A stretch of DNA of 64,000 nt from Patescibacteria group bacterium (GCA_028713575.1 JAQTOB010000001.1:27619-91618), one strand, 5' to 3'; shown: positions 10,611-55,012, counted from the stretch's first letter. The notes: a model not told the origin generated them from the letters alone. Numbers and translations are program-made.

Positions 10611-10700
10611 AATAGTGAACTTAAAAATCAAAAATCAAAATGAAAAATAATAATATAAATAAATTTAAAATTTCTCCTAATTTTAATGCTGTTCCGTTTT

Positions 10701-17258: not shown

Positions 17259-17344
17259 ATTTTCTCGCCAATGCTCAGTCAAATGCAAAATATAAATTTC
17301 AAAATGCAAAATGACAATGTAAAAATTTTTTAAATTTTAAACTT

Positions 17345-17593
17345 TTATGGTTCGTCCCATCCTCCCTTGGCCCAAGGATGACAACGAAAAACTCTTCCAA
17401 CTGCTTTAATCCCTCCCTTTATGAGTCCGTATTTCTCAATGGCCTGATAGGCATATTCCGAACAAGTCGGCTGAAACTTACAGACACCGGGCCAAGGATG
17501 TAACAAAGAAAACGGTCCATGGTCGGGAGAAAGTGTTTTTTGATAAAGACGAATTAATTTTAAAACCAACAGCTTTAACCAAGTAAATGCCAT
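17345..17593 (-). CDS. yidD: membrane protein insertion efficiency factor YidD
   Basis: FQPTCSEYAYQAIEKYG...FRCHPW. Confidence 0.85.
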   Translation of the reverse strand: MAFTWLKLLVLKLIRLYQKTLSPDHGPFSLLHPWPGVCKFQPTCSEYAYQAIEKYGLIKGGIKAVGRVFRCHPWAKGGWDEP

Positions 17594-18079: not shown

Positions 18080-18307
18080 AGGCGCTCCACTAAATTTAAA
18101 ATTAAAAAATCAAAAATCAAAATGACGTATTAAAAAACAAAAATTTCTTTAATTTCTATTTTACGTTTCAATTTTTAAGTTTATTATATCACAAATATTT
18201 AAATTAGCCCAGTGTGTATTAATTTTGCTATCATATAGATATTGGACACCTAATCTTATGGTTTCTATGCCGTGCTTCATGTTTCAATGTTGCTGTGTTC
18301 TAATGGT

Positions 18308-23500: not shown

Positions 23501-23603
23501 CTCCTGTTACCAGGATGCCCGCCAGGGGCAGCCTGTCCGCCTACTGGCGGAGGTCCGCCTTTGGCGGAAAAACCTGGTGTCCTAACCACTAGACGACGGG
23601 GCC
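23501..23603 (-). pseudogene. duplicated 5' two-thirds of tRNA-Glu interrupted by a ~50-bp GC-rich insertion
   Basis: Identical to the intact copy from the acceptor 5' end through the variable region (GGCCCCGTCGTCTAGTGGTTAGGACACCAGGTTTT ... CATCCTGGTAACAGGAG). The T-arm and 3' acceptor are missing. The insert 23518..23567 begins CCCGCC and ends GGCGG. Confidence 0.6.
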
Positions 23604-23691: not shown

Positions 23692-24798
23692 ATGAATAAC
23701 AAACAAAAATTTATTATCTTGGGTATTGAGACTTCATGCGACGAAACATCAGCCGCCCTTTTGGAATATAAGAATAATCGTTTCAAAATAATTTCCAATT
23801 TGGTTTCCTCACAGATTCCCATCCACCGAAGATACGGTGGAATCATTCCGGAAATCGCCGCCCGCGCCCATCTTAAAAATATGCCCTTAATAATCAAAAA
23901 AATTAGCCGAGAAATCAACCTAAAAAATATTGATTTAATTGCCGTTACTCGCGGTCCAGGACTAATTACCTCTTTATTAGTTGGCGTGGAAACAGCTAAA
24001 ACTTTGTCTTATCTTTTTGAGAAACCTCTAATTGGCATCAATCATTTAGAGGGGCACCTTGCCGCTAATTGGCTTCCGCCAATTAGCGGAAATCCCAAAT
24101 CCGAAGTCCTAAGCCCGAAACATATATTTCCTGCGGTGAGTTTGATTGTTTCCGGCGGACATACTGAACTCGGCTTAATAAAAAAAATGGGGAAGTATGA
24201 AAGAATTGGCCAAACCAGAGATGACGCGGCCGGCGAATGTTTTGACAAAGTCGCTAAATTGCTCAATCTCGGCTATCCAGGAGGCCCAGCCATTGCCGAG
24301 TATGCCCGTCAATGGAAATCTCAAATTTCAAATACCAAATTCCATATCTCCCTGCCACGACCGATGATAAAATCCAATGATTTTGATTTCAGTTTTTCCG
24401 GTCTCAAAACCGCTGTTCTTTATCTAGTTAAAAAAAATAAGAATAAAATAAAAAATAAAGACTTTATTAAAAATGTCTGTGCTGAAACGCAACAAGCAAT
24501 CATTGACGTTTTAATTTATAAAACCATTAAGGCGGTAAAAAAACATCAGGCCAAAAGCATCTTTCTGTCCGGCGGAGTAGCGGCGAACCGCGAATTAAGG
24601 GAACAACTGCGGGACAGCGTGGAAAAACTGTCCCCGCAACGGAATTTTTTGGTTCCCCCGAACAATCTTTGTACTGATAACGCCGCCATGATTGCCGCCG
24701 CCGGAGTTATAAGATACGGCATGCTTTCGCTGAAACAAAAAAAGGGACTGAAGAACGGGTGGAAAGACGTAAAAATCGATCCAAACCTAAGCCTGTAG
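23692..24798 (+). CDS. tsaD: tRNA N6-adenosine threonylcarbamoyltransferase
   Basis: ILGIETSCDETSAALL...HLEGHL...SGGVAANREL; Kae1/TsaD family. Confidence 0.9.
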   Translation: MNNKQKFIILGIETSCDETSAALLEYKNNRFKIISNLVSSQIPIHRRYGGIIPEIAARAHLKNMPLIIKKISREINLKNIDLIAVTRGPGLITSLLVGVETAKTLSYLFEKPLIGINHLEGHLAANWLPPISGNPKSEVLSPKHIFPAVSLIVSGGHTELGLIKKMGKYERIGQTRDDAAGECFDKVAKLLNLGYPGGPAIAEYARQWKSQISNTKFHISLPRPMIKSNDFDFSFSGLKTAVLYLVKKNKNKIKNKDFIKNVCAETQQAIIDVLIYKTIKAVKKHQAKSIFLSGGVAANRELREQLRDSVEKLSPQRNFLVPPNNLCTDNAAMIAAAGVIRYGMLSLKQKKGLKNGWKDVKIDPNLSL

Positions 24799-27204: not shown

Positions 27205-27807
27205 TTAAATAAATCTTTCGTTCTTAATAAATTTCGGCTTTGGGGGATTTTTGGATTCCTCTTTAACAAATTCTATATAATCCTGACGAAGTCCTTCTAT
27301 CTCTCTTTCTCCGCTATATTCCAAAAAACGATTTCTATCAATTAAATCATCATTGTATTCCTTTTGAAAATAAACCGAAAAACTGCTCCAAAGATAATCT
27401 TCTAATTTTTTACAAAGCCCCGCCCGTAAAGCATTCAGATCAATATAGGCGCTAACCGCCCAAAAATAAGATTCTGTATTTATTAGAGAGGCATAAAATC
27501 TATCCTGAAATAAATGGCCCTTTCTTTTATATCTTCTATTAAAATATCCTGCATAATAACTATTAATGTAATGCATTATCTTGGAAACGACAACTTCGCC
27601 GACTTCTACGTATAAATGAAAATGGTTTGGAAGTAAATTATAGGAATAAAGATAAAAACCAAACATTTTTTTTGCCCTTTTCAAAATCGTCAAAAATTTC
27701 TTATAATCCTGTGGTGCTCGGAAAATACATCGTTGATTAACACCACGACAAACTATGTGATATAAAGCACCATTAGTAATAATTTTTTCCCTTGTTTTTC
27801 GGGGCAT
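27205..27807 (-). CDS. IS200/IS605-family Y1 HUH transposase of the REP-associated (RAYT-like) type
   Basis: ALYHIVCRGVNQRCIF, HUH motif LLPNHFHLYV, YAGYFNRRYKRKGHLFQDRFYASLI and YIDLNALRAGL match the Y1_Tnp / RAYT consensus. Confidence 0.8.
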   Translation of the reverse strand: MPRKTREKIITNGALYHIVCRGVNQRCIFRAPQDYKKFLTILKRAKKMFGFYLYSYNLLPNHFHLYVEVGEVVVSKIMHYINSYYAGYFNRRYKRKGHLFQDRFYASLINTESYFWAVSAYIDLNALRAGLCKKLEDYLWSSFSVYFQKEYNDDLIDRNRFLEYSGEREIEGLRQDYIEFVKEESKNPPKPKFIKNERFI

Positions 27808-27827
27808 TTTATTAAATTAGTCGATAT

Positions 27828-27915
27828 TCGACTACTTTTTAAAAATTGTCTTACAACCCGCTTCTAGTAATGATTTTAGAATGGTATTTTTAGGGGACAG
27901 TCCCCTTTTTATAAA
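27828..27915. repeat. ~90-bp direct repeat, copy A, with two perfect palindromes (AGTCGATATTCGACT and AGGGGACAGTCCCCT)
   Basis: Near-identical to 29151..29248, with 2 to 3 mismatches. It lies 20 bp upstream of the transposase start codon. Confidence 0.8.
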
Positions 27916-27972: not shown

Positions 27973-28935
27973 TTATTTCAAATAGTGATTCAAATTAATC
28001 TCAACAAAAAAATATTTTTCTCCTCTTTTTGCAAGAAAAAATAAAATTCCATTTTTATCGAGTTCAATTGGATAAGCAAAAATCGCACAACAGCTGTTAG
28101 TTCTTATTTCATCAAAATCCCGAGAAATTTTTTGACCATTAAAGAAAAAAAATTTTTTTTCATCTTTTTCACCTACGAATCCTATATTGTCTTTATATGC
28201 AAATAAATGTGAACTTGCTTCAACTAAATATTTCTCATTGATCGTTTCATCATTATACCAAATATTTCGCTCCACAATTGGCGTATTCTTATCCTTCCAC
28301 TCCTTGAGATCGTAAAAAGTGAATGCGGGTGAATTTAGTATCATGCTTGCATCTTCAATAACACTTTCCGCTCCGAAATACATTTTATGGGAAAAAATTT
28401 CTTGCTCATTTTTAAAAATAGAATAATTGTCGTCGCCTTTGATGTTTCCAATAGTATAAACGTCCTTACTAAAACCATAAGATTCTGCTGTTTGTTTAAT
28501 ATTAATATTATTTATTAAATCTTTTCTAAATTCAGGGTTAATTATTAAACACCAATTATCTGGACCACATTCAGCCACTTTAAATTCCGGTGGTAGATTA
28601 TTTTTATATGCTTGCAAGCCAACTATTGAACAATTATCTTTTGTGCCATTTCTACATTCAATTTTGTATTGCAAGTGATACATTGGCGTTCGTCCCTGGA
28701 TTTCATGATTTTGGTTATACCAAAAATTTTTTCCTTGTTTTTGAAGTCGGGTTATTTCTTTTCTGATTAGTGTGAAAATATCATCAACGGTTTCACTTGT
28801 AAGAGTTGTTTCTATTTCATGGTAAATTTGAGATTGGCTATCAACGGGAATTTTATTTTCCCTGTTTTCAATTTGAGAGGTCGTGCACCCCGCTAAAAAA
28901 AATCCCATTATCAGTAGAAAAAAATATTTCTCCAT
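27973..28935 (-). CDS. hypothetical lipoprotein flanked by the direct repeats
   Basis: Signal peptide plus lipobox (LLIMGFFLAGC); cysteine-containing, with no recognisable domain. Confidence 0.6.
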   Translation of the reverse strand: MEKYFFLLIMGFFLAGCTTSQIENRENKIPVDSQSQIYHEIETTLTSETVDDIFTLIRKEITRLQKQGKNFWYNQNHEIQGRTPMYHLQYKIECRNGTKDNCSIVGLQAYKNNLPPEFKVAECGPDNWCLIINPEFRKDLINNINIKQTAESYGFSKDVYTIGNIKGDDNYSIFKNEQEIFSHKMYFGAESVIEDASMILNSPAFTFYDLKEWKDKNTPIVERNIWYNDETINEKYLVEASSHLFAYKDNIGFVGEKDEKKFFFFNGQKISRDFDEIRTNSCCAIFAYPIELDKNGILFFLAKRGEKYFFVEINLNHYLK

Positions 28936-29150: not shown

Positions 29151-29248
29151 TAGTCGATATTCGACTATTTTTTAAAAATTGTCTTACAACCCGCTTCTAG
29201 TAATGATTTTAGGATGGTATTTTTAGGGGACAGTCCCCTTTTTATAAG
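29151..29248. repeat. ~90-bp direct repeat, copy B, followed by a short 3x tandem repeat GTCCC(C)TTTTTAT at 29235..29285
   Basis: Copy B carries the same two palindromes as copy A. Confidence 0.8.
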
Positions 29249-29373
29249 TCCCCTTTTTATTGAAGGTCCCTTTTTATTGAAGTAATATTGACTTCTCGTT
29301 GCCTATTAAACGAATTTTAAGTATAATGTCTTTGCTTCTTAAGTTTACCACTCTTAAAATAACAGGCAATATT

Positions 29374-29832
29374 ATGTCAATTACCCCAACCTATTCGGAA
29401 AAACAAACATTTGATTTAGGTAAAAAATTCGCGGAAAAACTCCAAGGCGGAGAAGTTATCGGTTTAACCGGCGATTTAGGCGCGGGAAAAACCGTATTCA
29501 TTAAAGGTTTAGCAAAAGGACTGAAAATTGAACAAATTATCAACAGTCCGACATTTGTTTTGATGAAATTATACAAAATCAATTCAAAATTCAAAAATCA
29601 AAATGCAAAATTACAATGCAAAATTCAAAATTTAGTTCATGTAGACGCCTATCGTTTAAATTCTAGTCAAGAATTAATTAACGTTGGCATTGAAGATTAT
29701 CTGGAAAAGAAAAATGCGATTGTTGTGATTGAATGGGGGGAAAAAGTGAAAGATATTTTGCCAAAAGACAAGATTTCTGTTAAAATAAAGTTTGGGGGGA
29801 AAAAAAATGAAAGAGTAATAAGAATAAAATAA
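29374..29832 (+). CDS. tsaE: tRNA threonylcarbamoyladenosine biosynthesis protein TsaE (P-loop ATPase) with a low-complexity in-frame insertion
   Basis: GEVIGLTGDLGAGKTVFIKGLAKGL...INSPTFVLMKLY[KINSKFKNQNAKLQCKIQN]LVHVDAYRL. The start is placed at the ATG at 29374, downstream of a TATAAT at 29322; the tracked start 29299 lies inside the repeat. Confidence 0.8.
   Translation: MSITPTYSEKQTFDLGKKFAEKLQGGEVIGLTGDLGAGKTVFIKGLAKGLKIEQIINSPTFVLMKLYKINSKFKNQNAKLQCKIQNLVHVDAYRLNSSQELINVGIEDYLEKKNAIVVIEWGEKVKDILPKDKISVKIKFGGKKNERVIRIK
29575..29640. repeat. AT-rich 'caaaat(g/c)caaaat' repeat element lying inside the tsaE coding sequence
   Basis: aaatcaattcaaaattcaaaaatcaaaatgcaaaattacaatgcaaaattcaaaattt; the same motif family as 17281..17340, 52075..52170 and 54915..55012. 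Confidence 0.6.
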
Positions 29833-29928
29833 TCCGAAAAATCCAAATATACCCGAATGTCCCTAATAAAATAATTAATTATAAATTATTCGTAGCATTC
29901 GGATAAATTCGTAAATTAGAATTATTTT

Positions 29929-32532
29929 GTGAAAACAATGGATAAACAATACGAGCCAAAAAATTGCGAAACGAAAATTTACGAACTCTGGGAAAAGAGC
30001 GGATTTTTTAATCCAGACCGACTACCGGGCAAAAGAAGAAAAAAATATTCTATTTCCATCCCTCCGCCCAACATCACCGGTTCCCTGCATATGGGACACG
30101 CCCTGAATAACACAATTCAGGACATTTTAACCCGCTACTACCGCCTGCGGGGCAAAAAAACTCTTTGGTTGCCGGGAATTGATCATGCCGGCATTGCCAC
30201 CCAAAACGTGGTAGAAAAGAAAATCTCTAAAGAAGGATTGACTCGCCATCAACTCGGCCGAGATAAATTTATAGAAAGAGTCTGGCAGTGGAAGGAAAAA
30301 TATGGCAACCTAATCTTAGAACAATTAAAAAAACTTGGTTGTTCCTGTGATTGGTCTCGGAGTAGATTCACCTTGGACAAAGAATACGAACAGGCCGTAC
30401 AAACCGCTTTTATCAATTATTACAAAAAAGGCTACATCTACCGGGGTCCTCGGATCGTCAACTGGTGTCCCCGTTGCGCCACGGCTATCTCCGACATTGA
30501 AGTGAAATACCAAGAAGAAAAAGGTGCCTTGTGGTATATTAAATACCCGTTGCTTGAAAATTCCAAATTCCAATTTCCAAATTCCAAACAATATCTAAAT
30601 TCAAAACCTAAAATCCAAAAATTTATTACGGTAGCGACTACTCGACCAGAAACAATGCTGGGAGATGCGGCCGTGGCCGTGAATCCCAAGGAAGAAAGAT
30701 ATAAAAAGTTAGTCGGCCAAAAAGTTATCTTGCCAATAATGAACCGCGAGATTCCTATTGTCGCCCATCGTTTAGTTGATCTTAATTTTGGCACTGGCGC
30801 CTTAAAAATCACGCCAGCTCATGATAAAACCGACTGGCAGATTGGCAAAGAAAATAATCTAGAAATAATCAATGTTATTGGTCCTGACGGAAAAATGTCA
30901 AAAGAGGCGGGAAAATATGAAGGCCTCTCAACTCTTGAGGCCAGAAAAAAAATCATCGCCGAACTGGAAATCTTGGGTCTTTTGGAAAAAACCGAAGAAT
31001 ACGAGCATCAAATCTCCCTGTGTGATCGCTGTCATACTCCAGTCGAACCGCAAATTTCTACCCAATGGTTCGTTCAAATGGAAAAATTAGCCCAACCGGC
31101 GATTAAAGCGGTTAAAAACAATAAAATAAAAATTATTCCCGAACGATATAAAAAGGTATATCTTGATTGGTTAAATAACATTGAAGATTGGTGCATTTCT
31201 CGCCAGCTCTGGTGGGGACACCGTTTGCCAATTTGGCTCTGCCAAACAGCAAACAAAATTAAAAATCCCTGCCTGTCCGGCAGGCAGGAAAAATTAAAAA
31301 TCAAAAACATTAATAACGATTATGTTGTTTCGGCGACTCGACCAAAAAAATGCCCATTCTGCGGACAATGCGAGATGAAACAATCGGAGGACGTATTAGA
31401 CACCTGGTTTTCTTCTGCTCTTTGGCCATTCGCTACTTTGGGCTGGCCAATCGCTTGCGCTCAAAATAAAAAATCAAAAATAAAAATTAAAAAATATTGT
31501 AAACCAATTCGCGGTACCGATTTAGACAAATTTTTTCCGACTTCTCTTTTATCCACCGACCGCGGAATCCTTTATCTTTGGGTGGCGAGAATGGTTTTCT
31601 CAAGTTTGGAATTTTTAAAAAAAATACCCTTTAAAACCGTTTACATTCACGCCACTATTCTCAATCCGGAGGGCCGACGAATGAGTAAGTCGCTGGGAAC
31701 GGGCATTGACCCCTTGGGCTTAATTGATAAATACGGCGCCGACGCGGTCCGCCTCGGTCTAATAATCCAAACCAACCGCGACCAGCAGGCCATCCGCTTT
31801 GATGAAAGAACGATTTTGGCGGCCAGAAATTTTGTGAATAAGCTCTGGAACATAAGTCGTTTTATTGAAATTTCAACAAAACAAATCCAAGATTCTAAAT
31901 CAGAAATCCAAAACAAGTCCAAGATTCTAAACTCAAAAATCAAAACATTAACTCTATCGGACAGATGGATACTTAGCCGCTTAAATTCCGTTATTGATTC
32001 AATAACAAAAAAAATCGCCGATTATCAATTCGGCGAAGCGGGGCAAGAACTTTATGAATTTGTTTGGCATGAATTTGCCGATTGGTATTTAGAAATCAGT
32101 AAATTTCAAATGGCGGAAAAAAAATTAAAAAATAACACCATTTATTGTTTAAAATTTATAATTTATAATTTATTAAAACTCCTTCATCCTTTTATTCCTT
32201 TTGTCACTGAAGAAATCAACATTCATCTTAATAATTTGACCATAGAAAAAAATGGGGTTTTGCCAGAGAAAGCAATGGAACAATTTAGTCAGTTATTGAT
32301 AGTGGCAAACTGGTCCGCCGTGAAAAGAAAATACATAAATAAAAAGATTGAATCTCAATTTGAGAAAATAAAAAAAATTGTGGCTGAAATCAGGAACTGG
32401 AAATCAGAACAGAAAATTCCTTTTAATCAGGAAGTGGAATACCAAATTCAAAAAGAAGAAAAAAATCTTTTAATCATTAAAGAGGTAAAAACCCTGGTAG
32501 AACAAATGACCAAAACAAAATTGATTTCTTAA
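29929..32532 (+). CDS. valS: valyl-tRNA synthetase with several low-complexity in-frame insertions
   Basis: HIGH motif (PPPNITGSLHMGHALNN), KMSKS motif (RMSKSLG) and the zinc knuckles of the editing/CP1 region. Insertions lie at about 30551..30625, 31261..31320, 31465..31500 and 31875..31950. Confidence 0.9.
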   Translation: MKTMDKQYEPKNCETKIYELWEKSGFFNPDRLPGKRRKKYSISIPPPNITGSLHMGHALNNTIQDILTRYYRLRGKKTLWLPGIDHAGIATQNVVEKKISKEGLTRHQLGRDKFIERVWQWKEKYGNLILEQLKKLGCSCDWSRSRFTLDKEYEQAVQTAFINYYKKGYIYRGPRIVNWCPRCATAISDIEVKYQEEKGALWYIKYPLLENSKFQFPNSKQYLNSKPKIQKFITVATTRPETMLGDAAVAVNPKEERYKKLVGQKVILPIMNREIPIVAHRLVDLNFGTGALKITPAHDKTDWQIGKENNLEIINVIGPDGKMSKEAGKYEGLSTLEARKKIIAELEILGLLEKTEEYEHQISLCDRCHTPVEPQISTQWFVQMEKLAQPAIKAVKNNKIKIIPERYKKVYLDWLNNIEDWCISRQLWWGHRLPIWLCQTANKIKNPCLSGRQEKLKIKNINNDYVVSATRPKKCPFCGQCEMKQSEDVLDTWFSSALWPFATLGWPIACAQNKKSKIKIKKYCKPIRGTDLDKFFPTSLLSTDRGILYLWVARMVFSSLEFLKKIPFKTVYIHATILNPEGRRMSKSLGTGIDPLGLIDKYGADAVRLGLIIQTNRDQQAIRFDERTILAARNFVNKLWNISRFIEISTKQIQDSKSEIQNKSKILNSKIKTLTLSDRWILSRLNSVIDSITKKIADYQFGEAGQELYEFVWHEFADWYLEISKFQMAEKKLKNNTIYCLKFIIYNLLKLLHPFIPFVTEEINIHLNNLTIEKNGVLPEKAMEQFSQLLIVANWSAVKRKYINKKIESQFEKIKKIVAEIRNWKSEQKIPFNQEVEYQIQKEEKNLLIIKEVKTLVEQMTKTKLIS
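31268..31288. repeat. GC-rich palindrome CCTGCCTGTCCGGCAGGCAGG embedded in AT-rich repeat flanks, inside valS
   Basis: A second copy (CCTGCCTGCCGGCAGGCAGG) lies intergenically at 52112..52131, with the same caaaat-type flanks. Confidence 0.6.
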
Positions 32533-35171: not shown

Positions 35172-35300
35172 AATGGTCGCTTTACTTCAAACCCTAATTT
35201 CTAATTTCTAAACTCTAAATAATATTCTGAATTCTAAATTTAAAAACTAAAATTCAAAATCACTTTTTCCAAATTTCACTTTTTAGAATTTTAGGATTTG
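35172..35300. repeat. AT-rich degenerate 'ctaa(a/t)tt / aaaattcaaaat' repeat tract in the intergenic region downstream of the ATP-cone nuclease gene
   Basis: ctaatttctaatttctaaactctaaataatattctgaattctaaatttaaaaactaaaattcaaaatc; the units are degenerate and there are no unique spacers. Confidence 0.5.
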
Positions 35301-35361
35301 AATGTTTAAATTTGTTTAGGGCCTAGAACTTATGATTTGGGACTTCCGCGCAAAATGCGGT

Positions 35362-50795: not shown

Positions 50796-52097
50796 TTATA
50801 TCTCCTTTTTTAAAAGACGCAAGAAAATATTTTTATCTTTAATCGGCCCAATTAATGAAATATTAATATTTTTGAAAATATCTTGAGCGACGTTTTGAAT
50901 ATCTTTTCTTTGAACTTTTCTCATTTTCGCCAATTTTTCTTTCGGGGTAAAAATTTTTCCGGTTAATAGTATTTGTTTGGCATACCATCCGGCTAAATTG
51001 GCCGAATCTTCTAAATAAAGTCCAGTTGACCCTTCAATATAATCCTTTGCTCTTATTAATTCCTCTTTTGTCACTCCTTTATCTTTTATTTTTTTAAGTT
51101 CTTTTAATATAACTTCCACTGCTTCCTGTGTTTTGTTTTTATCAACGCCGGCAAAAATGCCATAATTACCAATGTCTTGATAAATATCAAAATCCGCGTT
51201 AATGGCATAGGCCAACCCCCTTTTGACCCTTACTTCTGTAAATAAACGCGAACTCATATTCCCACCCAAAATAACTAACAATAATTTAAGGGCTTCTATT
51301 TTGGGATGATTGTAATGATAGGCCAAGCCGCCCAAAGCAATCTGTGTTTGTTTTAAGTCTTTAAATAAAATTTTAACTTTATCTTTAATTTTTATTTTTT
51401 TGCGATTAAAAATTTTAAAACTTCCTTGTTTTTTTGCTCCGTGATATGGGGCAAAATATTTTTTCATTAAATTTATAACTTGCAACTTGTCTACGCCCCC
51501 GGAAATGGCGACAACCATTTGATGCGGTTGATAAAAAATTTTTTTATATGCTAATAATTTTTGGCGATTCATTTTTTTAACATCGCTTAATTGTCCGCTG
51601 ATTAATTGACCAAGGGGATGATTTTGATAAATAGTATTTTCAAAAAAATCATTAATATATAATAAAGGATTTTCTTGATACATTTTAATTTCTTCTAAAA
51701 TTACTCCCTTTTCTTGGCAAAACTCCTTTGCCTTAAAAAGCGAATTAAAAAGCATATCTGATAAGACGTTTAAGGCCGTTTCCATTTTATTATTAACCGT
51801 TTTTATCCAATAACCCGTATGGTCTTTTCCGGTGAAGGCGTTATAATTAGCGCCAATTCCATCCAATTCTTGAGCAATAGCCAGGCTAGTCGGACGTTTT
51901 TTTGTTCCTTTAAACATCATATGCTCTATAAAATGCGAAGCTCCATGCAGTTTTAAAGATTCGTGCCGAGACCCTGCCGGCAATAAAACTAAGGCCGTAA
52001 TTGTTTTGGAATTATTTTTAGGAATAATTACTAATTTTAAACCATTGGAAAGTTTTGTTTGATAATACATAGTCGCTTCGCTAAATTCAAAATGCAA
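50796..52097 (-). CDS. M16 (pitrilysin/insulinase-like) zinc peptidase
   Basis: Inverted zinc motif HFIEHMMFKGT (HxxEH). Confidence 0.8.
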   Translation of the reverse strand: MHFEFSEATMYYQTKLSNGLKLVIIPKNNSKTITALVLLPAGSRHESLKLHGASHFIEHMMFKGTKKRPTSLAIAQELDGIGANYNAFTGKDHTGYWIKTVNNKMETALNVLSDMLFNSLFKAKEFCQEKGVILEEIKMYQENPLLYINDFFENTIYQNHPLGQLISGQLSDVKKMNRQKLLAYKKIFYQPHQMVVAISGGVDKLQVINLMKKYFAPYHGAKKQGSFKIFNRKKIKIKDKVKILFKDLKQTQIALGGLAYHYNHPKIEALKLLLVILGGNMSSRLFTEVRVKRGLAYAINADFDIYQDIGNYGIFAGVDKNKTQEAVEVILKELKKIKDKGVTKEELIRAKDYIEGSTGLYLEDSANLAGWYAKQILLTGKIFTPKEKLAKMRKVQRKDIQNVAQDIFKNINISLIGPIKDKNIFLRLLKKEI

Positions 52098-52170
52098 AAA
52101 TTAAAATGTAACCTGCCTGCCGGCAGGCAGGAATGACAATTTAAAATTCAAAATAAACTCAACTTTTAAT
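52075..52170. repeat. composite repeat: AT-rich caaaatgcaaaa units, the GC palindrome CCTGCCTGCCGGCAGGCAGG, then further AT-rich units
   Basis: ctaaattcaaaatgcaaaaattaaaatgtaaCCTGCCTGCCGGCAGGCAGGaatgacaatttaaaattcaaaata; a paralogous copy lies inside valS at 31261..31320. Confidence 0.6.
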
Positions 52171-52173
52171 TTT

Positions 52174-53739
52174 TTATTCTAATTTTTCTTTTAAATACCC
52201 GGTTAACTCTGCTATAGCCACTCTTTTCTGTTTCATTGTGTCGCGGTCCCTGATAGTCACTTTTTTGTCTTCCAAGCTTTCAAAGTCTATTGTTAAACAA
52301 TATAAAGTGCCGATTTCATCTTGGCGACGATATCGCCGACCGATTGATCCAACCTCGTCATATTGAGCCGTCCAATATCTTTTAATCTCTCTAGATATGT
52401 CGCGCGCTAATTTTGTTAATTTCTCTTTTTTTGCTAAAGGTAAAATCGCAATTTTAATCGGGGCCAAATCTTTATGCAGATGCAAAACAACTTCTGTTTC
52501 TTTATTTGATTCTGTGGTGGTTGTTCGGCCACCGCCAATTTCTTCATAAGCATCTATAAAAAAGGCCAATAATGGCCGGTCCACGCCGGCCGAAGGTTCA
52601 ATAACATAAGGAATAAATTTCTTCCCATTTTCATCGCGACTAAATAAATTTTCTCCTGAAAATTTGCCATGTTGTTTCAAATCAAAATCACCCCGATTAG
52701 CAATGCCCTCCAGTTCCGACCAATTAAAGGGAAATTTATATTCCACATCTGAACAGGCCTGGGCATAATGAGCTAATTCATTCTTTTTATGCTCTCTAAG
52801 TCTAAGGTTCTCTTTTTTTATTCCTAATTTTACATACCAATCTAATCTTTCTTTTAACCAATATTGATGCCATTTTTTTGCCTCTTGAGGATGAACAAAA
52901 AATTCTAATTCCATTTGTTCAAACTCTCTGGTTCGAAAAATAAAATTGCCCGGCGTGATTTCATTACGAAACGATTTGCCGATTTGGGCGATTCCAAAAG
53001 GAATTTTTGTCCTAGAAGATTGTAAAACATTATTGAAATTAACGAAAATTCCTTGAGCCGTTTCCGGTCTAAGATAAGTTTTTTGAGCCGTTGCCTGCAC
53101 TGGTCCAATACTGGTGGACAACATAAGATTTGCTGAAGTCGGTTCAGAAAGCGCTTCTCCGCACAAAGGACAAGGAATAGCCGCCAGACCATCGGCTGAG
53201 GCAGCTATTCTGCCAATAAAATTTCTAAAATCCAAATCCGTCTGTTTAAATGTTTTATGAATATCACTAATCCAAGAAAGCGTTACTTCAGGTCTCAAGA
53301 CAAGCGCCAAATTAGGTGCTAAATCTTTTCCCTTAGTTTTCGCCCAGTTAAAAAGATCTTTGCTTGTTTTATGCCCTGCCATATCCTTTAATAATGACTG
53401 CCACCAATCGCCGTTCCAAATAAGATCATAAATTTGATCGCCGCGAAACTGCTTTTTACAAAAAGGACAAGAATAAAATGGATCTTTAAAACCGGCGACA
53501 TGACCGCTAGCTTCCCAAACTTTTGGATTGAGTAAAATCGCGCTATCAAGTCCGACTACATCTTCCCTTTCCTGGACTACTTTTTTCCACCAGGCTTTTT
53601 TAATATTATTTTTCAGTTCAACTCCTAGGGGGCCGTAATCATAACAAGAACCCAGCCCGCCGTAGATTTCCGAGGACCGAAAAATGAAACCGCGGCGCTT
53701 ACACAAAGAAACTATTTTTTCCATTAAATTTTGATTCAT
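52174..53739 (-). CDS. glyQS: glycyl-tRNA synthetase, dimeric archaeal/eukaryote-like type
   Basis: MNQNLMEKIVSLCKRRGFIFRSSEIYGGLGSCYDYGPLGVELK... Confidence 0.85.
   Translation of the reverse strand: MNQNLMEKIVSLCKRRGFIFRSSEIYGGLGSCYDYGPLGVELKNNIKKAWWKKVVQEREDVVGLDSAILLNPKVWEASGHVAGFKDPFYSCPFCKKQFRGDQIYDLIWNGDWWQSLLKDMAGHKTSKDLFNWAKTKGKDLAPNLALVLRPEVTLSWISDIHKTFKQTDLDFRNFIGRIAASADGLAAIPCPLCGEALSEPTSANLMLSTSIGPVQATAQKTYLRPETAQGIFVNFNNVLQSSRTKIPFGIAQIGKSFRNEITPGNFIFRTREFEQMELEFFVHPQEAKKWHQYWLKERLDWYVKLGIKKENLRLREHKKNELAHYAQACSDVEYKFPFNWSELEGIANRGDFDLKQHGKFSGENLFSRDENGKKFIPYVIEPSAGVDRPLLAFFIDAYEEIGGGRTTTTESNKETEVVLHLHKDLAPIKIAILPLAKKEKLTKLARDISREIKRYWTAQYDEVGSIGRRYRRQDEIGTLYCLTIDFESLEDKKVTIRDRDTMKQKRVAIAELTGYLKEKLE

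Positions 53740-53776: not shown

Positions 53777-55012
<1,236 letters not shown>

Follow-up and report, generated by a model that had tools for sequence, protein, structure and literature searches.

In-frame fusion of small intergenic palindromic repeats to genes is already established for the RPE, ERIC, YPAL and Correia elements of bacteria (PMC2229807). Here we analyse repeat DNA that lies in frame inside three housekeeping genes (tsaE, valS and tsaD) of a bacterium of the Patescibacteria, in the candidate phyla radiation (CPR), within a 64,000-nt stretch of 33% GC (GCA_028713575.1, JAQTOB010000001.1:27619-91618; hereafter the window). These inserts are probably in-frame insertions of the DNA class that builds the short intergenic elements of this lineage, in which arrays turn over and loops tolerate them. 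What is new here is the combination of arms built from heptamers with a 52-nt module of fixed order, its deep conservation, its placement from stop to start codon, and its occurrence in essential genes of CPR bacteria.

Palindromes of 105-146 bp that are confined to Rickettsia, the RPE (Ogata et al., 2000), are fused in frame in conserved genes (PMC2229807). Like RPE, the family studied here is a small intergenic repeat family that also occurs in frame inside housekeeping genes, where it is apparently tolerated since it lies outside the functional core. Its sequence is however unrelated, its host belongs to the Patescibacteria, its arms are made of seven-base repeats, its copy in tsaE is a single 53-nt arm without a hairpin, and the family spans genomes whose proteins are 40-55% identical. 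ERIC/IRU and YPAL/RU-2, from enterobacteria and Yersinia, and the 107-bp Correia/NEMIS element are MITEs (transposable elements of miniature size that carry inverted repeats): genus-confined intergenic hairpins of about 100 nt with open reading frames (ORFs), gene fusions, TA target duplications and short terminal inverted repeats, whose hydrophobic frames give predicted signal peptides or transmembrane segments and whose hairpins have been proposed as RNase III targets (PMC2229807). The T-rich arm of the present element likewise encodes ILHFALSFCILIFAFCI at the N-termini of cohesin-domain proteins. Unlike those MITEs, it shows no target duplication that we could see, and it often runs exactly from stop to start codon within operons.

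REPs are GC-rich palindromes of 20-40 nt that carry a GTAG or CGTC tag (PMC3733652). With REP/BIME our element shares intercistronic palindromes just after stop codons in operons, and the window holds a gene resembling REP-associated tyrosine transposases (RAYT); the module is nevertheless AT-rich, has 52 nt per arm and is untagged, and the GC palindrome found in valS (CCTGCCTG...CAGGCAGG) is untagged too and does not lie beside the RAYT-like gene. Heptanucleotide long simple-sequence repeats (LSSRs), such as GGGAATC in Xanthomonas and GGGGAYT in Nostoc (PMC4692102) or TAACTGA in Beggiatoaceae (PMC4679880), are reported to be more abundant in bacteria than any other class of such repeats; most are located near the ends of genes, slippage has been proposed for them (PMC4679880; PMC4692102), and they are reported to be under-represented in or excluded from coding regions (PMC4692102; PMC4679880). 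The arrays described here are likewise over-represented tandem 7-nt units of varying copy number, mostly intergenic and within about 50 nt of a start or stop codon, sometimes in inverted pairs, with stop codons limiting their genic orientation. Unlike LSSRs, they occur in frame within essential genes, where they change in steps of three units, and part of them forms the fixed-order module.

Borg tandem repeats generate disordered protein regions (PMC9879509). As with Borg repeats, one process seems to act on genic and intergenic DNA, with an A-rich coding strand and fast-evolving, disordered segments. Repeat units in Borg ORFs reportedly have lengths divisible by three and sit on archaeal extrachromosomal elements, whereas the unit here has 7 nt, so that the frame is preserved only when units come in threes, and the inserts lie in essential genes of the chromosome. 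In the AT-rich genome of Plasmodium falciparum, housekeeping enzymes including aminoacyl-tRNA synthetases (aaRS) carry Asn/Lys-rich low-complexity loops between conserved blocks; those inserts differ in being eukaryotic, in lacking a seven-base period and in having no link to a dispersed intergenic element. The 'hypervariable repeat' of Gracilibacteria is a 9-mer repeat of PTD surface proteins and is unrelated. We found no description of such an element family in the literature on CPR bacteria.

In-frame inserts in tsaE, valS and tsaD

A first-pass annotation, made from the sequence alone, had proposed that AT-rich 'caaaat' repeats are inserted in frame once in tsaE and at least four times in valS. 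Rechecked on the sequence, all five segments have the positions and peptides it gave (Table 1), and they are indeed insertions relative to orthologues. The ValRS of T. thermophilus (1gax) is gapped at all four valS sites, by 18, about 16, about 19 and 14 residues for sites 1 to 4, and the solved TsaE structures of T. maritima and B. subtilis have 13-14 residues fewer at the tsaE site. Alignments of 20 Patescibacteria ValRS and 25 TsaE place length and sequence variation at the same sites, where short forms are empty, and the ValRS of relatives range from 680 to 957 aa. Every one of the best relatives of this ValRS is annotated 'Patescibacteria group bacterium'. Together, the gaps in solved structures and the variation among relatives bear out the view of lineage-specific repeat DNA within loops of intact essential genes. 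Both reading frames are intact, tsaE-valS pairs are syntenic in relatives, and the ValRS keeps HMGH and RMSKS, which correspond to the class I signatures HIGH and KMSKS; with the retention of these genes in relatives, this suggests that the enzymes still work, as the annotation had supposed. Two small inserts of the heptamer class in tsaD bring the insert-bearing housekeeping genes to three.

Models agree with a placement in loops. In an AlphaFold2 (AF2) model of TsaE, with a predicted local distance difference test score (pLDDT) of 85.6, the insert forms a loop between strands 64-68 and 86-91. In the ValRS model all four inserts fall in segments of pLDDT below 50 and devoid of secondary structure, including residues 208-226 (insert 1), 439-459 (insert 2) and 651-663 (insert 4); that these segments are loops of ValRS is suggested mainly by the 1gax alignment.

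Table 1. Host genes, inserts and related repeats in the window (positions counted from its first nucleotide; strand "." for palindromic features).
Feature	Coordinates	Strand	Evidence and remarks
tsaE	29374..29832	+	NCBIfam TIGR00150, 111 bits; host of one insert
tsaE insert, a lone A-arm of the ~52-nt dispersed module built from heptamers, read (K)INSKFKNQNAKLQCKIQN	29581..29633	+	nhmmer, 48.3 bits
valS	29938..32532	+	NCBIfam NF004349, 1033 bits; host of four inserts; closest solved homologue 1gax
valS insert 1, (AAATTCC)x4 and degenerate units, read ENSKFQFPNSKQYLNSKPKIQKF	30551..30625	+	TRF period 7, 4.4 copies, 91% matches
valS insert 2, two direct repeats AAAATTAAAAATC around the GC palindrome	31256..31312	+	gap in 1gax
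21-nt GC palindrome CCTGCCTG-TCCGG-CAGGCAGG, read PCLSGRQ	31268..31288	.	stem identical at 52112-52131
valS insert 3, net +57 nt, IACAQNKKSKIKIKKYCKPIRG	31450..31518	+	A-rich heptamers 31463-31496; TRF period 7, 4.9 copies; gap in 1gax
valS recombination tract carrying insert 3	31450..31785	+	roughly 335 nt
valS insert 4, 32-nt unit x2.2, read KQIQDSKSEIQNKSKILNSKIKT	31877..31947	+	TRF score 112, 90% matches; 14-aa gap in 1gax
tsaD small insert 1, heptamer class, SGNPKSEVLSPKH	24084..24124	+	lag-7 segment; gap relative to T. maritima TsaD 6n9a_D
tsaD small insert 2, heptamer class, QWKSQISNTKFHISLP	24310..24352	+	lag-7, heptamer-pattern match, structure alignment
Intergenic module copy	17281..17326	+	36.0 bits, E=3e-10; tsaE 27-mer with 3 mismatches; lies ~20 nt upstream of where a - strand gene starts
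Intergenic module copy broken by the GC palindrome (52112-52131)	52084..52163	+	13.6 bits, E=0.003; terminator-like for the - strand gene 52174-53739
Palindromic element made up of A-arm, centre and T-arm, which fills the space separating two - strand genes	54917..55012	.	inverted repeats; fold -11.4 kcal/mol, z -0.5, weak
(AAAAATC)n arm, intergenic, immediately upstream of a - strand gene's start	10611..10663	+	repeat search, lag-7, heptamer pattern
Heptamer arm with inverted partner, intergenic, upstream of the start of a - strand gene	18093..18187	.	inverted repeat, lag-7, heptamer pattern
Degenerate heptamer arrays (CTAATTT/CTAAATT), intergenic, downstream of dnaA	35183..35299	+	tandem repeat, lag-7

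The seven-base period exceeds what an AT-rich composition produces by chance. Lag-7 self-similarity gave 12 segments, against 0.97 ± 0.95 expected from 100 third-order Markov simulations of the window; the other lags from 4 to 14 stayed near expectation, lag 13 being mildly raised (4 vs 0.55). When as many as 3 mismatches were allowed, (AAAWTCM)x3 was found 26 times where 4.1 ± 2.3 matches were expected. A scan of genes for G-poor, A-rich segments had returned 59 matches and was dropped in favour of the lag-7 test as too unspecific at 33% GC. In 21 of the 26 heptamer-pattern matches the A-rich strand is the + strand, which has negative GC skew and few genes; tsaD, tsaE and valS belong to this minority of + strand genes. 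The 27-mer of the tsaE insert has a second copy at 17299 with 3 mismatches and the valS GC palindrome a second copy at 52112, both against an expectation of 0.

The tsaE insert belongs to a dispersed module. Against a profile built exclusively from foreign copies (112 metagenome copies of the block AATTCAAAATGTAAAAATCAAAATGCAAAATGACAATGTAAAATTTAAAATT), it scored 48.3 bits (nhmmer, E=4.7e-14, match span 29581-29647), while 60 simulated windows gave 11.8 bits at most. With the recurrence of the 27-mer and that of the palindrome of valS site 2, this carries the likeness between genic and intergenic copies beyond composition, as had been suggested. The four valS inserts, by contrast, scored about 0 bits and are not members of the module. 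The idea that all five inserts form one motif family is thus not supported, and what they have in common is only the A-rich class with a seven-base period. The family 20-mer CAAAATGCAAAATTACAATG is present exactly in the tsaE insert, and the tsaE-derived 20-mer CAAAATGCAAAATKACAATG has an exact match in at least 120 metagenome contigs. A gap-free alignment of the copies yields a block of ~52 nt with sharp edges, outside which the information content is about 0; its consensus, AATTCAAAATGTAAAAAT-CAAAATGCAAAATGACAATG-TAAAATTTAAAATT, amounts to about 7.5 heptamers. The profile finds three members in the window, in tsaE and at 17282-17324 and 52084-52163. As RNA, the tsaE arm forms no hairpin (-1.8 kcal/mol, z +0.15).

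In two other Patescibacteria (L127 2520-2640 and L128 10190-10250) the same TsaE loop holds a structured palindrome, with an outer stem ACCCTGTTAAAT...ATTTAACAGGGT around a pair of small GC hairpins. Their pairing is preserved, but their sequences are not the same in L127 and L128; L127 additionally carries (AATCAAC)x3. Searches with Rfam returned only tRNAs above threshold in the window and no significant match for the L127 and L128 TsaE loops.

The valS inserts are heptanucleotide arrays whose content changes from one relative to the next. At site 1 the window is 42 nt longer than relative L005, which has nothing there, and 21 nt longer than L003, which carries a perfect (AAATCAC)x4. Site 2 consists in L003 of two abutting 14-nt direct repeats without the palindrome and in L005 of (AAATTCC)n, the unit that the window has at site 1. 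Site 4 is a perfect (AAAAATC)x4 in L003 and (CCAAATT)n in L005. Insert 3 is present in the window and in L003 (ValRS 74% identical) and absent from L001 (96% identical). The length differences at these sites are multiples of 3 nt, twice 21 or 42. The tract around insert 3 is 70-84% identical between the window and L001, against 95-100% elsewhere in valS, and over its first 200 columns the window is 85-90% identical to L003. Since this mosaic tract coincides with insert 3, the insert was exchanged by homologous recombination, and the mosaic indicates such recombination between CPR lineages inside an essential gene. The repeats had been described as mobile or slippage-prone. Slippage-type arrays, with (AAATTCC)x4 in the window, the perfect fourfold arrays of L003 and steps of 21 or 42 nt, uphold the latter; of mobility no such signs as target-site duplications, clean filled and empty sites or a linked transposase were found.

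The valS arrays use units that are widespread. (AAATTCC)x3 occurs in at least 120 species-representative genome stretches (L007-L126) from Bacteroidota, Acidobacteriota, Cyanobacteria, Chloroflexota, Verrucomicrobiota and many CPR groups. In 10 checked cases it lies in frame in Pfam-confirmed proteins: two class I aaRS, TrmD, a Mur ligase, a P-type ATPase, a GT4 glycosyltransferase, FemAB, PPDK, a radical SAM protein and a glycogen debranching enzyme (GDE). These enzymes read it as NSKFQIP, and the hydrophilic orientation dominates by roughly 23 to 5 (hand count, ORFs of at least 200 aa). The named-genome loci fetched for this array contain no module copy. In some CPR class I aaRS of the Val/Ile type (L047 from Wolfebacteria, L087 and protein P0055), a complete histidine-phosphatase domain (PF00300) has been inserted and separates the halves of the catalytic domain. 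In another relative, the ValRS P0004 has GC-rich repeat-like peptides (SERSERSNLIEDRGIASSFRQVGTPRND and STEHIKRYVLRCSAEPINMGSG) at valS sites 1 and 2; the valS loops therefore admit unrelated types of repeat.

The GC palindrome of valS site 2 behaves like a separate small unit. It is precisely present in the window, and absent from L003, between direct repeats, and the recurrence of its stem at 52112-52131 was matched in 0 of 100 shuffles. The L005 tsaE has a degenerate copy in place of the module core. The same palindrome occurs in L165, L181 and L234, and on unrelated contigs an identical 20-mer lies inside another gene (read ENLPAGRQVKR) and beside the module. Its RNA folds at -16.5 kcal/mol on the + strand (z -5.0) and -17.8 on the - strand (z -3.9). 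On the - strand a GC hairpin followed by a U-tract, the pattern of intrinsic terminators, is found at 52131-52112, downstream of gene 52174-53739, and again at 31290-31266, antisense to valS, where it is the top terminator-like site of that strand; the sense strand has no U-tract after the hairpin. Terminator-like sites number 9 in the region against 3.8 ± 2.0 expected. The palindrome thus looks like an intrinsic terminator, at valS on the antisense strand only.

Another GC hairpin type varies too: at 23530-23568 the window differs from the 99%-identical L001 (1160-1180) by a 21-nt indel, with two adjacent hairpins (TCCGCC-TACT-GGCGGA and TCCGCC-TTT-GGCGGA) in the window and one in L001. A GIY-YIG gene has this site at its 5' end or just upstream, and the hairpin type is shared with the TsaE loop of L127.

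The intergenic module and its placement

Module carriers are distant from the window: their proteins share 47% identity with it for DnaA, 42-47% for TsaD, 43% for MreB, 48-56% for RNase III and 39% for TsaE, and their loci have a GC content of 26 to 64%. Judged by these protein identities alone, the module probably ranges across distantly related CPR genomes. A phage origin was rejected, as only 2 viral contigs contain the 20-mer.

The majority of copies are intergenic and lie at gene boundaries. Copies situated 3' of a same-strand gene start -9 to +12 nt from its stop codon in 32 of 52 cases, and for 14 of the 30 copies beside a gene on the opposite strand the distance to its start codon is 0-18 nt. 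An inverted partner is found 17-156 nt away for 46 of 107 copies (about 43%), more than half being solo arms. The commonest paired layout (15 cases) runs stop codon, A-arm, centre, T-arm, ATG, often with a GC hairpin as centre; full intergenic elements measure 97-111 nt with inverted arms of 45-52 nt, and their AU-rich RNA hairpins have moderate stability (-11 to -21 kcal/mol). In a distant genome (L173 5566-9049), palindromic elements of 97 and 111 nt occupy both gaps of the cell-wall cluster mraY-ftsW-murG, each reaching exactly from the stop codon to the ATG. In the window, the intergenic regions 54914-55012, 18080-18200, 10611-10690 and 17260-17350 share this boundary plan of the metagenome copies. 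Downstream of dnaA, the intergenic region 35172-35361 is dense in the degenerate heptamers CTAATTT, CTAAACT and CTAAATT; the GC skew shows no clear switch within the window. A plain sigma-70 promoter in the T-arm (TTGTCA-17 nt-TACATT) seems unlikely, as its putative -10 box falls on variable positions while its 'spacer' is invariant, and scans of the window gave no excess of promoter-like sites.

Both strands can be read as protein. With the A-rich strand as sense, the module was found inside long ORFs, three of which motif reading identifies as AlaRS-like, class I aaRS-like and TatD-like. With the T-rich strand as sense, ILHFALSFCILIFAFCI occupies residues from about 8 to 25 and a cohesin domain comes right after a signal-peptidase-like site. 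In L132, L134, L177, L198, L199, L227, L243 and L245 this strand supplies the hydrophobic core of signal-peptide-like N-termini, on proteins with cohesin and Ig-like domains whose N-terminus is far better conserved than the mature domains. Stop codons constrain these readings: (AAAATCA)n is open in all three frames and its complement has TGA in every frame, as would the heptamer arrays of the window on the other strand. The common G variant of the module (AAAATGACAATG) creates TGA in frame 1, and all genic copies with this variant are read in frames 2 or 3; the tsaE copy, in frame 1, has the T variant, which reads TTA and thus avoids TGA.

A wider reading is possible, and we advance it tentatively, at less than even confidence: the 'caaaat' DNA would be a hitherto undescribed family of intercistronic palindromic elements built from heptamers, probably common among CPR bacteria, whose arm, nearly identical in lineages with core proteins of only 40-55% identity, is read by a conserved host factor as operon punctuation, and which also provides raw material for protein innovation. 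Punctuation could take the form of RNase III processing, of a coupled terminator and promoter, or of heptamer binding by a cold-shock-type protein. As protein, the A-strand would give hydrophilic loops in essential enzymes (TsaE here, and by motif the AlaRS-, aaRS- and TatD-like proteins elsewhere), and the T-strand the hydrophobic signal-peptide core of secreted cohesin-domain proteins.

Origin of the inserts

The reading that we favour, insertion of the DNA class that makes the intergenic elements, would involve one DNA class with an A-rich strand and a seven-base period, in which two layers can be separated. In the first, the tsaE insert is a solo arm of the dispersed ~52-nt module, which normally sits at gene boundaries, often with an inverted copy and from stop codon to ATG. 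In the second, the four valS and two small tsaD inserts are heptanucleotide simple-sequence arrays that lengthen, shorten and homogenise in place, presumably through tandem duplication or slippage, and that are passed between lineages through homologous recombination. Site 2 of valS would also have received the 21-nt GC palindrome, as an intergenic module copy has. Intergenic copies may have been the source of the tsaE module and the palindrome, through recombination, template switching or transposition. Selection would then act as a filter. Only lengths divisible by 3 would survive, several steps being of 21 nt, that is, three units or seven residues; the A-rich strand alone would survive as sense because (AAAATCA)n is open in three frames and its complement closed in all; and only permissive surface loops would admit inserts. 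The encoded peptides, rich in K, N, Q, S and I, would serve as hydrophilic disordered spacers that leave the enzymes working, and the persistence of the inserts would follow from the lack of stop codons in the A-rich strand and from the hydrophilic, unstructured loops that it encodes. The family membership of the tsaE insert, the periodicity, the polymorphism, the location in loops, the recombination tract and the stop-codon and frame filters are observations; neutrality of the inserts, their route of entry and any role of the intergenic element we infer.

Several points weigh against this reading. Comparing strains, as the first-pass annotation had proposed, confirmed that the sites vary among relatives but revealed no heptamer-array or module indel between the window and L001 (~99% identical) or L002, so that turnover is slow on that scale, and the insertion event itself was never caught. 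The valS inserts have no statistical tie to the module, and their origin in situ from A-rich codons still has to be reckoned with. In tsaE, what separates the long form from the short one is an internal 33 nt and not the whole module, the short-form relative L251 having kept both module ends, which makes insertion and deletion ambiguous. The tsaE insert also encodes nearly the same peptide in relatives of 66-97% identity, being conserved about like the rest of the protein, which is compatible with a function too. Finally, the ValRS model is mediocre (mean pLDDT 69), with low confidence at residues 489-590 that extends beyond the insert.

A purely local origin, by slippage on A-rich Lys, Asn and Ile codons as in Plasmodium and with no tie to intergenic elements, would account for the perfect-unit tandem arrays at the valS sites and for their scores of about 0 bits against the module. 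It also fits the report that heptanucleotide repeats are the commonest long bacterial simple-sequence repeats, with slippage blamed (PMC4679880; PMC4692102), and the spread of (AAATTCC)n over many phyla. We nonetheless consider it unlikely, as the tsaE insert is a specific, non-tandem 52-nt sequence that scores 48 bits against foreign intergenic copies, the stem of the GC palindrome is identical at a second locus and in other genomes, and AAATTCC occupies site 1 in the window and site 2 in L005. Selection for a function would make the inserts either Lys-rich appendages that bind tRNA or a partner, or signals that act within the gene as DNA or RNA, for instance terminators on the antisense strand, sites of processing or heptamer arrays bound by proteins. 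The constancy of the tsaE peptide down to 66% identity speaks for it, as do the valS palindrome with its T-rich tail, which is the best antisense terminator-like site amid the excess of such sites, and the conservation of the module core across 40-55% protein identity, which suggests a conserved factor. But the sites are empty or otherwise filled in many relatives with the same enzymes, the peptides are of low complexity and predicted to be unstructured, and insert 3 is present or absent at 96% ValRS identity; we regard this explanation as very unlikely.

Quite unlikely, in our view, is an active MITE- or REP-like element, with the arms as terminal inverted repeats, the palindrome as core and a transposase that pastes copies into genes in trans, the RAYT-like Y1 gene at 27205-27807 being one candidate. 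Full elements of ~100 nt with inverted arms of 45-52 nt are what it predicts, near-identical copies exist in very divergent genomes, the palindrome comes and goes precisely with its flanking repeats intact and recurs at unrelated loci (once in another gene), and the window does contain this REP-associated tyrosine-transposase-like gene (NF047646, 64.6 bits). Yet target-site duplications are not evident at L173, in the intergenic regions of the window or at tsaE, although A-rich flanks hamper the judging of short ones; clean filled and empty sites were not seen; over half of the copies are solo arms; each array is homogeneous locally, with units that differ per lineage at one site, which points to slippage in situ; no array or module indel separates 99%-identical genomes; and viral contigs with the 20-mer number only two. 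The RAYT-like gene itself was rejected as a partner of the module: its match is under the curated cut-off (64.6 vs 80 bits), its flanks carry a different palindrome (TAGTCGA-TAT-TCGACTA), and, as it is the only transposase-like gene in the window, no parent transposase with the terminal repeats is found there. An assembly or gene-calling artefact is exceedingly improbable, even though repeats are hard to assemble and the window is probably metagenome-derived: the tsaE insert and valS inserts 1, 2 and 4 were found again in independent JGI, Logan and ENA assemblies, and the frames are intact.

The surroundings of the RAYT-like gene (- strand) are repetitive in their own right. It adjoins a 97-nt direct repeat (27818-27914 and 29151-29247) whose copies are 98% identical and bracket gene 27973-28935; the repeat holds TAGTCGA-TAT-TCGACTA and GGGGAC-A-GTCCCC, followed by a 17-nt tandem repeat (29235-29282). 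The 99%-identical L001 (5600-9440) has ~3 kb of extra DNA here, with an HNH endonuclease and a tyrosine integrase that abuts tsaE; a variable hotspot therefore lies upstream of this gene.

Meaning for CPR genomes and proteins

On the reading that we favour, non-coding repeat DNA finds its way into essential genes and stays there as protein sequence even when the genome is extremely reduced, and the entry of repeats would be a concrete source of the length variation of CPR proteins. In practice, such inserts inflate alignments, mislead gene callers and could be used as strain markers. To our knowledge, the signals that govern gene expression are essentially unknown in this uncultivated group. 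An exact 20-mer within a block of ~52 nt that is shared at less than 50% identity of core proteins, in an element placed stop-to-start inside operons such as mraY-ftsW-murG, points to a cis-element. Depending on the strand, one element gives a hydrophilic loop or a signal-peptide core, so that the birth of protein segments may here be directly testable.

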